Positions 1 to 4,409 of a stretch of DNA of 4,409 nucleotides are shown piece by piece. Position numbers and translations under genes: made by a program. The stretch is from NCBI RefSeq assembly GCF_003334785.1, contig NZ_QOWV01000047.1; one strand, written 5' to 3'. The notes under the pieces are model-generated. The model did no database searches. It had not been told where the DNA came from and worked only from the letters and a program-made list of their open reading frames with translations. The stretch's first letter is position 1. Each line of letters begins with the position of its first letter. Source of the DNA: Escherichia coli (GTDB lineage: Bacteria; Pseudomonadota; Gammaproteobacteria; Enterobacterales; Enterobacteriaceae).

Positions 1-60
1 TGGCCGGCAAACCGGGTACGCGATCTGTTGCCCTGGAAAGTTGATCTGAGCTCTCAGTAA
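1..60 (+). CDS. 3' terminal fragment of an upstream ORF (partial, 19 codons then TAA); identity not determinable from this fragment, possibly murI by E. coli synteny
   Basis: Frame 1 is open from position 1 and reads WPANRVRDLLPWKVDLSSQ before TAA at 58-60. Codon usage is plausible. Too short to identify the protein; murI is only suggested because it lies upstream of rrnB/murB in E. coli K-12. Confidence 0.3.
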   Translation, partial: WPANRVRDLLPWKVDLSSQ

Positions 61-92
61 ATATCAATACGGTTCTGACGAGTCGCTTACGA

Positions 93-190
93 CAAATCCG
101 CCGGGAGCGGATTTGAACGTTGCGAAGCAACGGCCCGGAGGGTGGCGGGCAGGACGCCCGCCATAAACTGCCAGGCATCAAATTAAGCAG
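93..190 (+). other. Distal rrnB terminator-region remnant with three stem-loops and a 5S rRNA 3'-end-like segment
   Basis: Matches my recollection of the sequence between rrnB T1 and T2 (GACAAATCCGCCGGGAGCGGATTTGAACGTTGCGAAGCAACGG...). Stem-loops at 94-114 (AAATCCGC/GCGGATTT), 118-132 (CGTTGC/GCAACG) and 144-162 (GGCGGGC/GCCCGCC). AACTGCCAGGCAT at 166-178 resembles the 3' end of 5S rRNA. Confidence 0.6.
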
Positions 191-225
191 AAGGCCATCC
201 TGACGGATGGCCTTTTTGCGTTTCT
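191..225 (+). terminator. rrnB T2-like rho-independent terminator
   Basis: GC-rich inverted repeat GGCCATCC (193-200) / GGATGGCC (205-212) with a 4-nt loop TGAC, followed by TTTTTGCGTTTCT (213-225). Sequence matches the rrnB T2 terminator as carried on common expression vectors. Confidence 0.8.
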
Positions 226-310
226 ACAAACTCTTCCTGTCGTCATATCTACAAGCCATCCCCCCACAGATACGGTAAACTAGCCTCGTTTTTGCATCAG
301 GAAAGCAGCT

Positions 311-1339
311 ATGAACCACTCCTTAAAACCCTGGAACACATTTGGCATTGATCATAATGCTCAGCACATTGTATGTGCCGAAGACGAACAACAATTACTC
401 AATGCCTGGCAGTATGCAACCGCAGAAGGACAACCCGTTCTTATTCTGGGTGAAGGAAGTAATGTACTTTTTCTGGAGGACTATCGCGGCACGGTGATCA
501 TCAACCGGATCAAAGGTATCGAAATTCATGATGAACCTGATGCGTGGTATTTACATGTAGGAGCCGGAGAAAACTGGCATCGTCTGGTAAAATACACTTT
601 GCAGGAAGGTATGCCTGGTCTGGAAAATCTGGCATTAATTCCTGGTTGTGTCGGCTCATCACCTATCCAGAATATTGGTGCTTATGGCGTAGAATTACAG
701 CGAGTTTGCGCTTATGTTGATTCTGTTGAACTGGCGACAGGCAAGCAAGTGCGCTTAACTGCCAAAGAGTGCCGTTTTGGCTATCGCGACAGTATTTTTA
801 AACATGAATACCAGGACCGCTTCGCTATTGTAGCCGTAGGTCTGCGTCTGCCAAAAGAGTGGCAACCTGTACTAACGTATGGTGACTTAACTCGTCTGGA
901 TCCTACAACAGTAACGCCACAGCAAGTATTTAATGCGGTGTGTCATATGCGCACCACCAAACTCCCTGATCCAAAAGTGAATGGCAATGCCGGTAGTTTC
1001 TTCAAAAACCCTGTTGTATCTGCCGAAACGGCTAAAGCATTACTGTCACAATTTCCAACAGCACCAAATTACCCCCAGGCGGATGGTTCAGTAAAACTGG
1101 CAGCAGGTTGGCTTATCGATCAGTGCCAGCTAAAAGGGATGCAAATAGGTGGGGCTGCGGTGCACCGTCAACAGGCGTTAGTTCTCATTAATGAAGACAA
1201 TGCAAAAAGCGAAGATGTTGTACAGCTGGCGCATCATGTAAGACAGAAAGTTGGTGAAAAATTTAATGTCTGGCTTGAGCCTGAAGTCCGCTTTATTGGT
1301 GCATCAGGTGAAGTGAGCGCAGTGGAGACAATTTCATGA
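311..1339 (+). CDS. murB: UDP-N-acetylenolpyruvoylglucosamine reductase (MurB), FAD-dependent, peptidoglycan precursor synthesis
   Basis: 342-aa ORF whose translation I recognise as E. coli MurB. Residues R159, S229 (codon AGT 995-997) and E325 fall at the known catalytic positions. Shine-Dalgarno-like AGGAAA at 299-304, 6 nt before ATG 311. Stop TGA 1337-1339. Confidence 0.96.
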
Positions 1340-2301
1340 AGGATAACACCGTGCCACTGAAATTGATTGCCCTGTTAGCGAACGGTGAATTTCACTCTGG
1401 CGAGCAGTTGGGTGAAACGCTGGGAATGAGCCGGGCGGCTATTAATAAACACATTCAGACACTGCGTGACTGGGGCGTTGATGTCTTTACCGTTCCGGGT
1501 AAAGGATACAGCCTGCCTGAGCCTATCCAGTTACTTAATGCTAAACAGATATTGGGTCAGCTGGATGGCGGTAGTGTAGCCGTGCTGCCAGTGATTGACT
1601 CCACGAATCAGTACCTTCTTGATCGTATCGGAGAGCTTAAATCGGGCGATGCTTGCATTGCAGAATACCAGCAGGCTGGCCGTGGTCGCCGGGGTCGGAA
1701 ATGGTTTTCGCCTTTTGGCGCAAACTTATATTTGTCGATGTTCTGGCGTCTGGAACAAGGCCCGGCGGCGGCGATTGGTTTAAGTCTGGTTATCGGTATC
1801 GTGATGGCGGAAGTATTACGCAAGCTGGGTGCAGATAAAGTTCGTGTTAAATGGCCTAATGACCTCTATCTGCAGGATCGCAAGCTGGCAGGCATTCTTG
1901 TGGAGCTGACTGGCAAAACTGGCGATGCGGCGCAAATAGTCATTGGAGCCGGGATCAACATGGCAATGCGCCGTGTTGAAGAGAGTGTCGTTAATCAGGG
2001 GTGGATCACGCTGCAGGAAGCGGGGATCAATCTCGATCGTAATACGTTGGCGGCCATGCTAATACGTGAATTACGTGCTGCGTTGGAACTCTTCGAACAA
2101 GAAGGATTGGCACCTTATCTGTCGCGCTGGGAAAAGCTGGATAATTTTATTAATCGCCCAGTGAAACTTATCATTGGTGATAAAGAAATATTTGGCATTT
2201 CACGCGGAATAGACAAACAGGGGGCTTTATTACTTGAGCAGGATGGAATAATAAAACCCTGGATGGGCGGTGAAATATCCCTGCGTAGTGCAGAAAAATA
2301 A
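1336..2301 (+). CDS. birA: Bifunctional biotin-[acetyl-CoA-carboxylase] ligase and biotin operon repressor (BirA)
   Basis: 321-aa ORF recognised as E. coli BirA. N-terminal wHTH region around residues 22-46 ([26 protein letters not shown]). Biotin-binding loop GRGRRGRKW at residues 115-123 (nt 1678-1704). Start ATG 1336-1338 overlaps the murB stop (ATGA). Stop TAA 2299-2301. Confidence 0.96.
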
Positions 2302-2304
2302 GAA

Positions 2305-2324
2305 AGGGGAGTATTCGCTCCCCT
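2305..2324. terminator. Intrinsic terminator hairpin shared by convergent birA and coaA (probably bidirectional, stronger for coaA)
   Basis: 7-bp stem AGGGGAG (2305-2311) / CTCCCCT (2318-2324) with a 6-nt loop. On the - strand the hairpin is followed by TTTCTTATTTTTCTG (T-rich, overlapping the birA 3' end). On the + strand it is followed by the less U-rich GCAAATTATTTGCG. It sits in the 28-bp gap between the birA stop (2299-2301) and the coaA stop (2330-2332). Confidence 0.6.
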
Positions 2325-2329
2325 GCAAA

Positions 2330-3280
2330 TTATTTGCGTAGTCTGACCTCTTCTACCGCATGATTAGCACTTTTCGTCAGGATTAAACTGGCGCGCTCAC
2401 GAGTAGGTAGAATATTTTGCTTTAAGTTCAGCCAGTTGATCTCTTTCCACAATGTCATGGCAGTCTTAATCGCTTCTTCTTTAGTTAATTTCGCGTAGTT
2501 ATGAAAATAGGAATCCGGGTCGGTAAAAGCCCCTTCGCGGAATTTCAGAAAACGGTTGATATACCATGTCTGAAGTAAGTCTTCCGGTGCATCAACATAT
2601 ATCGAAAAATCGACAAAATCAGAAACAAATACATGATGTGGATCGTGTGGATAATCCATCCCGCTCTGTAAGACATTTAACCCTTCAAGAATTAAAATAT
2701 CAGGCTGAACAACCGTTTTATCTCCATCCGGGATCACATCATAAATAAGATGTGAGTAAACAGGTGCTGTAACGTTTGGCACGCCGGATTTGAGATCGGA
2801 AACAAACTTCACCAGGCGATGCATATCATACGATTCCGGGAAGCCTTTCTTCTTCATCAGACCACGTTCTTTCAGAACCTGATTAGGGTGAAGGAAGCCA
2901 TCTGTAGTGATCAGTTCAACACGACGATGTTCCGGCCAACGGCTTAATAGCGCCTGCAATACACGGGCGGTTGTACTTTTCCCCACCGCGACACTGCCAG
3001 CAATACTGATAATGTAAGGAATGCGTTGCCCGTTGGTACCAAGAAACTGTTCCAGAACTGCCTGACGGCGCAGATTCGAGCTTATATAGAAGTTCAGCAA
3101 ACGTGACAAAGGTAAATAGATCTCGGCAACTTCTTCTAACGAGAGATCTTCATTAATACCTTTGAGACGGGCGATCTCATCTTCCGATAACGTCATAGGT
3201 ACGGAATCACGCAGAGCTGCCCACTGGTTGCGGTCAAACTGTAGGTAAGGCGTCATTAACGTTTGCTCTTTTATACTCAT
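2330..3280 (-). CDS. coaA: Type I pantothenate kinase (CoaA), first step of coenzyme A biosynthesis
   Basis: Translation from ATG at 3280 (minus strand) gives the 316-aa protein [20 protein letters not shown]..., which I recognise as E. coli CoaA. Walker A P-loop GSVAVGKST (residues 95-103, nt 2972-2998 on the - strand) contains K101. The six-frame ORF runs further upstream to an ATG at 3436 (368 aa), but the recognised protein starts at 3280. No strong Shine-Dalgarno sequence upstream. Confidence 0.93.
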
Positions 3281-3545
3281 AAGCATGTTTCTGGCGGTCA
3301 TAGCTCTATCGGCAAAGCGATATTTGCCATGGCGCGTCACAGTTCTGTTGAATGGGTTAATGGGCAGGAGGGTAACACCAGATGGGGAGGAATAATAAGA
3401 AAAAATCTCTGCCAGGAAGCTATCGTTGAAAAGCAATGTGACAGATATTCCATCTGATAAAAAGAATTATGGTTTAGCAGGAGCGCATTGTTGAGCACAA
3501 TGATGTTGAAAAAGTGTGCTAATCTGCCCTCCGTTCGGCTGTTTC

Positions 3546-3598
3546 TTCATCGTGTCGCATAAAATGTGACCAATAAAACAAATTATGCAATTTTTTAG
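3546..3598 (+). promoter_or_regulatory. A/T-rich upstream activating region (UP-element-like tract, possible Fis site) of the thrU-tufB operon promoter
   Basis: CAATAAAACAAATTATGCAATTTTTTAG (3571-3598) lies immediately upstream of the -35 hexamer. One candidate Fis-like 15-mer, GCATAAAATGTGACC (3557-3571), has G at position 1, C at position 15 and an A/T-rich centre. Fis activation of this operon is established in the literature; the exact site placement here is my inference. Confidence 0.4.
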
Positions 3599-3627
3599 TT
3601 GCATGAACTCGCATGTCTCCATAGAAT
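3599..3627 (+). promoter_or_regulatory. Sigma70 promoter of the thrU-tyrU-glyT-thrT-tufB operon
   Basis: -35 TTGCAT (3599-3604), 17-bp spacer, -10 TAGAAT (3622-3627), then the GC-rich discriminator GCGCGC (3628-3633), typical of stringently controlled stable-RNA promoters. Predicted transcription start about 3634-3636, a few nt before the mature thrU 5' end (3642). Confidence 0.75.
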
Positions 3628-3641
3628 GCGCGCTACTTGAT

Positions 3642-3717
<76 letters not shown>

Positions 3718-3725
3718 TCAAGTCC

Positions 3726-3810
<85 letters not shown>

Positions 3811-3926
3811 ATTTCGGCCACGCGATGGCGTAGCCCGAGACGATAAGTTCGCTTACCGGCTCGAATAAAGAGAGCTTCTCTCGATATTCAGTGCAGAATG
3901 AAAATCAGGTAGCCGAGTTCCAGGAT

Positions 3927-4001
<75 letters not shown>

Positions 4002-4007
4002 AGATGT

Positions 4008-4083
4008 GCTGATATAGCTCAGTTGGTAGAGCGCACCCTTGGTAAGGGTGAGGTCGGCAGTTCGAATCTGCCTATCAGCACCA
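4008..4083 (+). tRNA. thrT: tRNA-Thr (anticodon GGU)
   Basis: 76 nt. Acceptor stem GCTGATA/TATCAGC, anticodon stem CACCC/GGGTG with loop TTGGTAA (anticodon GGT), T-loop AGTTCGAATCT, encoded CCA (4081-4083). Confidence 0.95.
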
Positions 4084-4161
4084 CTTCTTTTCTCCTCCCT
4101 GTTTTTTCCTTCTGTTTATTGCATTCAACAAGTCGGGCATGTTGCCTGGTTGATGTGGTGA

Positions 4162-4409
<248 letters not shown>

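Follow-up and report, generated by a model that had tools for sequence, protein, structure and literature searches.

The stretch of E. coli DNA analysed here (the window, 4,409 nucleotides) joins the end of a mobile element to the terminator region of a ribosomal RNA operon. The right-hand end of ISCro1 makes up positions 1-90, and the sequence from position 91 onward is native chromosome, beginning inside the spacer between the T1 and T2 terminators of rrnB and continuing through T2 into murB. The site had no precedent in the collections searched (5426 complete genomes and two contig collections); the element itself is known, and the kind of event is an ordinary one. Our analysis favors, as the likely history, a simple insertion of ISCro1 that duplicated 8 bp of the target site (the target-site duplication, TSD), in which case rrnB would still stand intact some 2.7 kb upstream. 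ISCro1 belongs to the IS66 family, received its name first in Citrobacter rodentium, and is common on both chromosomes and plasmids of E. coli. Feature coordinates are collected in Table 1.

Table 1. Features of the 4,409-nucleotide window, with the evidence used to assign each
Feature	Position	Strand	Basis
Last 19 codons of tnpC plus TAA (ISCro1, IS66-family DDE transposase)	1-60	+	Alignment to L002, 100% identity
ISCro1 right end with IRR, terminating ...GACGAGTCGCTTAC at 90	61-90	+	Copy comparison
Predicted 8-bp TSD GACAAATC, right-hand copy only in window	91-98	.	Inferred from other ISCro1 copies
Distal rrnB T1-T2 spacer; hairpins 93-115 and ~142-164	91-164	+	100% identity to ML35 and ER1709 3′ of rrfB/T1
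rrnB T2: 5S-3′-end-like motif AACTGCCAGGCATCAAATTAAGC, hairpin GAAGGCCATCC-TGAC-GGATGGCCTT, T-run	165-225	+	Folding, conservation
murB (UDP-N-acetylmuramate dehydrogenase), intact, 342-aa ORF	311-1339	+	RefSeq annotation of identical sequence
birA, intact	1336-2301	+	ORF list, annotation
coaA (type I pantothenate kinase); annotation of identical genomes gives 316 aa	2330-3280	-	
thrU-tyrU-glyT-thrT tRNA genes, tufB operon	3642-4083	+	ARAGORN, Rfam
tufB, first 212 nt	4198-4409	+	Comparison with K-12 tufA

Positions 1-90 match ISCro1 right ends at 100% identity (E = 7e-39), across the C-terminus of tnpC, its stop codon, and the IRR ending in CGCTTAC. Matches to this segment occur at 6560 places in 2064 of the 5426 complete E. 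coli genomes (38%), on chromosomes and plasmids alike; more than 1400 records match at 99% identity or above, many of them at 100%, and the corresponding coding sequence is annotated in RefSeq as "IS66-like element ISCro1 family transposase". Window position 1 corresponds to position 3501 of the reference copy L002, whose annotated transposase coding sequence ends at 3560, or window position 60. The window holds merely the last 57 coding nucleotides of tnpC, unlike the reference copies, in which tnpA-tnpB-tnpC all lie within 2699 bp. An earlier sequence-only reading of this DNA had pointed to an open frame ending in TAA at 58-60 and proposed that it be identified. The frame is real and encodes the end of the ISCro1 TnpC transposase, as established at 100% identity by nucleotide search and RefSeq annotation. 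The same reading took the 32 bp after the stop codon for unrelated sequence; they are instead the end of the element, including its terminal inverted repeat.

The boundary of the IS could be fixed to the nucleotide. In 15 of 15 copies examined, drawn from different loci, the sequence is the same through CGCTTAC and diverges at the next base. Because copies at unrelated loci are identical through GACGAGTCGCTTAC and then part at once, the IS terminus falls at window position 90. The reverse complement of the right end, GTAAGCGACTCGTCAGAACCGT, agrees with the left inverted repeat (IRL), GTAACCGGCTCATTTAAACCGT, at 17 of 22 positions. The IRL of reference copies starts GTAACCGGCTC... and the left end of ISCro1 reads GTAACCGGCTCATTT...; the termini thus show the GTAA... 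start and ...TTAC end of IS66/ISCro1 elements. We measured a length of 2699 bp in the reference copies. ISCro1 was published at 2699 bp with an 8-bp TSD (PMC12115866), and we count this agreement in favor of the identification. The copies found in E. coli vary within the terminal inverted repeat (A78G, T83C, and C79T; L029-L033), the variants sitting in truncated or unannotated relic copies such as those of O157:H7.

To the right of the IS, the ORF list, ARAGORN, Rfam, and RefSeq annotation together identify the window as the E. coli chromosomal segment 3′ of the rrnB operon. The 4319 bases of positions 91-4409 match many natural E. coli chromosomes at 100% identity, including those of ML35, ETEC O6:H16 strains, and HS30-1, and occur as an exact string at positions 7001-11319 of ML35. 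At least 80% of this segment is covered in 5420 of the 5426 complete genomes, so the gene neighborhood is kept in essentially all. A cloning vector, as a source of the rrnB terminator, was rejected in view of the unbroken run into murB-birA-coaA-tRNA-tufB, 100% identical to chromosomes. The mechanical ORF list gives coaA as a 368-aa frame on the minus strand (2330-3436) that begins at an upstream TTG; this is an ORF-calling artefact, and identical genomes annotate 316 aa with an ATG near 3280.

The junction lies at 90/91. BLAST alignments run back to 88, since the TA at 88-89 matches by chance, and the sequence-only reading, which had put the junction near 88-93, came within 2-3 bases of it; the step is at 90/91 and not at 92/93. 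In ML35 and ER1709 the order is 5S, T1 (AAAGGCTCAGTCGAAAGACTGGGCCTTTCGTTTTATCTG), the spacer (...GTTGTTTGTCGGTGAACGCTCTCCTGAGTAG followed without interruption by GACAAATCCGCCGGGAGCGG...), T2, and murB, and GACAAATCCGCC... starts 86 bases after the 5S gene, right behind ...CGCTCTCCTGAGTAG. The window from 91 reproduces the spacer, T2, and murB of these two strains; the differences from the K-12-type region are that 5S, T1, and the first 30 nucleotides of the spacer (...TATCTGTTGTTTGTCGGTGAACGCTCTCCTGAGTAG) have been pushed out of the window by the IS. The alignment to other genomes that the earlier reading had called for shows that positions 1-90 are not the normal sequence after rrfB/T1. Across the 5426 complete E. 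coli genomes, no single place covers 80% or more of window positions 1-320, and for this reason we regard the junction as a real departure from the reference arrangement. Both junctions were also sought with one degenerate pattern, GAYWWRTCGTAASCGRCTCRTYARAACCGT, which fits the observed right junction as well as the predicted left one; it had zero matches in genome_contigs and zero in metagenome_contigs. Six draft contigs recovered through an identical MurB likewise carry no IS.

The earlier reading had rightly recognized the T1-T2 spacer and T2, which are 100% identical to the rrnB sequence from 91 onward and in place 5′ of murB. Two hairpins in the spacer fold at -14.1 (positions 93-115) and -20.4 kcal/mol (~142-164). 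The T2 hairpin (192-213) has a folding energy of -22.7 kcal/mol (z = -5.9; none of 200 shuffled sequences was equally stable) and is followed by TTTTTGCGTTTC, giving T2 the GC-rich hairpin and T-run of an intrinsic terminator. A consensus promoter and terminator scan of positions 1-330 flagged nothing, T2 included. T2 is conserved 5′ of murB in all E. coli compared. The full K-12-type interval, from 5S through T1, spacer, and T2 to murB, is present in only 2513 of the 5426 complete genomes. The interval is ~167 bp shorter in NC101-type genomes, where a single terminator directly follows the 3′ end of 5S and murB comes next (L034, 140-360). The K-12-type segment of T1 plus spacer (~167 bp) is a presence/absence polymorphism in E. 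coli. A copy of the 5S-3′-end motif, AACTGCCAGGCATCAAAT, precedes T2 at window positions 166-183, and this second occurrence of the motif suggests that the T1/T2 pair derives from an old local duplication. The rrnA distal region (5S to mobB; L035, NZ_CP043205.1, 601-853) carries a T1-spacer-T2 sequence 99.6% like that of rrnB up to about window position 222. With the T1-T2 sequence common to both operons, only the continuation into murB identifies the locus.

Within the window, neither a 5S gene nor a T1 hairpin precedes rrnB T2, as the sequence-only reading had correctly observed: Rfam finds four tRNAs only, with no 5S rRNA, and positions 1-90 contain no T1 hairpin. The two edges of the window explain this. 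At the right edge, tufB differs from K-12 tufA, which stands in for the source strain's own tufA, at CDS positions 1...135, after which no difference comes until 291. The window stops at CDS position 212, exactly 77 nt beyond the last of the differences before that end. On the left, exactly 77 nt separate the edge from IS position 78; the window has A there, and 3 of 5 variant ISCro1-like copies have G. Such edges are expected from a de Bruijn assembler run at k = 77 when a unique path meets a repeat, and the window resembles a complete short-read contig, each end of which lies within a repeat. In other assemblies, draft contigs with identical MurB begin within 23S/5S and run as far as tufB, and for 15,673 index blocks the longest contig bearing an identical MurB gene is only 2-5 kb. 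Going left from murB in the source genome, the first repeat reached is the IS. The contig breaks off inside it, so 5S and T1 are missing. Their absence is an edge effect and not evidence of loss, and the earlier statement that no rRNA gene stands in front holds for a contig that begins inside a repeat, and only there. The window is an example of how a contig edge within a mobile element can mimic a missing rRNA operon. The break inside the IS further implies that the source genome holds at least one more ISCro1-like copy.

How ISCro1 usually behaves at its ends bears on what lies beyond the left edge. We sampled 12 copies ranked on the IS interior alone, a choice unbiased as to flanks; 11 were full length and 1 truncated. 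Perfect 8-bp TSDs flank nine of the 11 full-length copies, at eight distinct sites, and the remaining two (L017 and L027) have unrelated flanks. L002 and L003 also have perfect TSDs, bringing the count to 11 of 13 full-length copies. The duplications are GACAGACG, AGACAATC, AAATGCAT, CAACCACT, GATTTTTA, TATTTATC, AAAAGACA, GTACCAAA, TCTGAATA, and GCTTACTG, to which the literature adds TAACCTTT (PMC12115866). There is no consensus among the ten TSDs plus TAACCTTT that would indicate a target-site preference, and GACAGACG and AGACAATC resemble the GACAAATC of the window only through a match ranking that rewarded chance flank matches. We therefore see no site-specific reason for insertion here. 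The insertion lies 2 nt upstream of the small spacer hairpin at 93-115, a position to which we attach no significance.

Because most other ISCro1 copies keep perfect TSDs, we consider it likely that the window records a simple insertion with rrnB intact. ISCro1 would have transposed into the rrnB T1-T2 spacer between ...CCTGAGTAG and GACAAATCCGCC..., and the staggered cut made by the transposase would have duplicated the 8 bp GACAAATC. The far end of the IS should then be flanked by ...GAGTAGGACAAATC, giving a predicted left junction in which ...GAGTAGGACAAATC is followed directly by GTAACCGG... (in a longer form, ...GGTGAACGCTCTCCTGAGTAGGACAAATC and then GTAACCGGCTCATTTAAACCGT). Under this model, rrfB and T1 (...CTCCTGAGTAGGACAAATC) would sit directly upstream of the left end of the IS, placing 5S and T1 about 2.7 kb upstream. 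Among the possibilities raised by the sequence-only reading, "a rearrangement" loosely covers such a transposition, even though the IS end itself went unrecognized.

A different history would have rrnB no longer adjoining murB, ISCro1 having inserted here or nearby and later homologous recombination with another ISCro1 copy having deleted, inverted, or moved the DNA on the left; the number of rrn operons in the genome may then be six, or rrnB may lie elsewhere. The two full-length copies with non-matching flanks, 2 of 11, mean that IS-mediated rearrangements are not rare, and the further ISCro1-like copy implied by the contig break would offer a partner. ISCro1-mediated recombination with loss of DNA has been documented for plasmids (PMC12115866), and changes in rrn flanks do occur in complete genomes, as where an rrn operon stands beside murI and then yjaA (L036). 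Against these points stand the perfect TSDs kept by the majority of copies (9 of 11, with L002 and L003 in addition) and the retention of the neighborhood, with 5420 of 5426 genomes covering at least 80% of positions 91-4409. The window itself contains no sign of loss, and the reference arrangement has murI and btuB a short way upstream. We judge such a rearrangement unlikely. Slightly less probable in our estimation is the combined proposition that rrnB was in fact lost or relocated by IS-IS recombination, with ISCro1 as the mark of it (a natural isolate with six rrn operons, or with rrnB moved), or that separation of T1 from T2 measurably alters rrnB termination or murB-birA expression. If rrnB had indeed been lost or relocated by IS-IS recombination, the result would be a natural change of rrn copy number in E. 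coli, of modest interest for studies of growth rate and genome stability.

An assembly chimera, in which an IS end and the rrnB spacer were misjoined and no insertion exists, is very improbable. The window is indeed a short draft contig whose ends lie in repeats, and its junction was found nowhere else (5426 complete genomes, genome_contigs, and metagenome_contigs), but the join sits exactly on the biological terminus of the IS, ...CGCTTAC, a coincidence expected at random about once in 2699, and the spacer has no long k-mer in common with the IS end by which a de Bruijn assembler might be misled. Least credible of all is a clean deletion of rrnB, deliberate or natural, or a lineage in which this locus was always without an rrn operon, both of which the sequence-only reading had entertained: the window does lack 5S and T1, and assemblies without rrnB between murI and murB exist (L006, with a 5463-bp gap in rrnB), but the native spacer is bordered at the junction by an intact IS terminus and not by murI-side DNA or a scar, so that a deletion is neither needed nor indicated; the spacer and T2, 100% identical to those of rrnB-bearing strains, contradict an ancestral absence; and the L006 junction is a different one, with the rrnB P1 leader fused to the spacer, in an assembly that may itself be artefactual. 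An engineered rrn deletion or an FRT scar was rejected, the left side being a natural IS terminus, in keeping with the earlier remark that no FRT or other recombineering scar was visible.

A simple ISCro1 insertion at this position would probably be near neutral. T1 would still follow 5S and end rrnB transcription. T2 would stay between the IS and murB, toward which tnpC reads, and with T2 so placed, read-through into murB-birA should be blocked. The insertion resembles that of ISCro1 upstream of afaA in E. coli ST131, which lowers afaA transcription (PMC8764528), in that both lie in a chromosomal intergenic or regulatory region; it differs in that T2 here intervenes between the IS and murB, and we infer that no effect on expression is to be expected. 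Because only 2513 of 5426 genomes have the full interval and NC101-type genomes do without T1 and spacer, genome comparison shows the T1 plus spacer segment hit by the IS to be, as far as its distribution tells, dispensable in nature. The NC101-type (B2-like) rrnB-murB interval has this dispensability in common with the insertion locus; the difference is that it reflects a ~167-bp presence/absence polymorphism and not an IS insertion. What the window adds is one previously unrecorded ISCro1 site, situated in an apparently dispensable spacer between two terminators.

Three other assemblies depart from the usual arrangement of this neighborhood. In L006 (GCA_949281665.1, CASDNB010000012.1; 5700-6000), murI is followed by 305 bp and then murB, with 5463 bp of rrnB missing, so that the P1 leader (...GGGGTTCTCC) joins the T1-T2 spacer at CGGAGGGTGG; tufB also lacks 861 internal bp (~10107). 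Since both gaps lie in multi-copy repeats, L006 may be an assembly artefact and not a real rrnB deletion. In L036 (NZ_CP043205.1, the K-12 O16:H48 strain PG20180054 from mouse gut; 5739-12001), the rrn operon beside murI is followed not by murB but by yjaA-yjaB-metA-aceBAK, the neighbors of rrnE, suggesting either recombination between rrnB and rrnE or a misassembly. Finally, L010 (GCA_034538955.1, JAWVQG010000598.1; 3496-4989), a draft contig otherwise identical, carries a 1494-bp insert in the interval that separates coaA from the tRNA-tufB operon, directly upstream of thrU, with lambdoid prophage-like genes (DUF1367, YbcO, and an antiterminator-Q-like gene).
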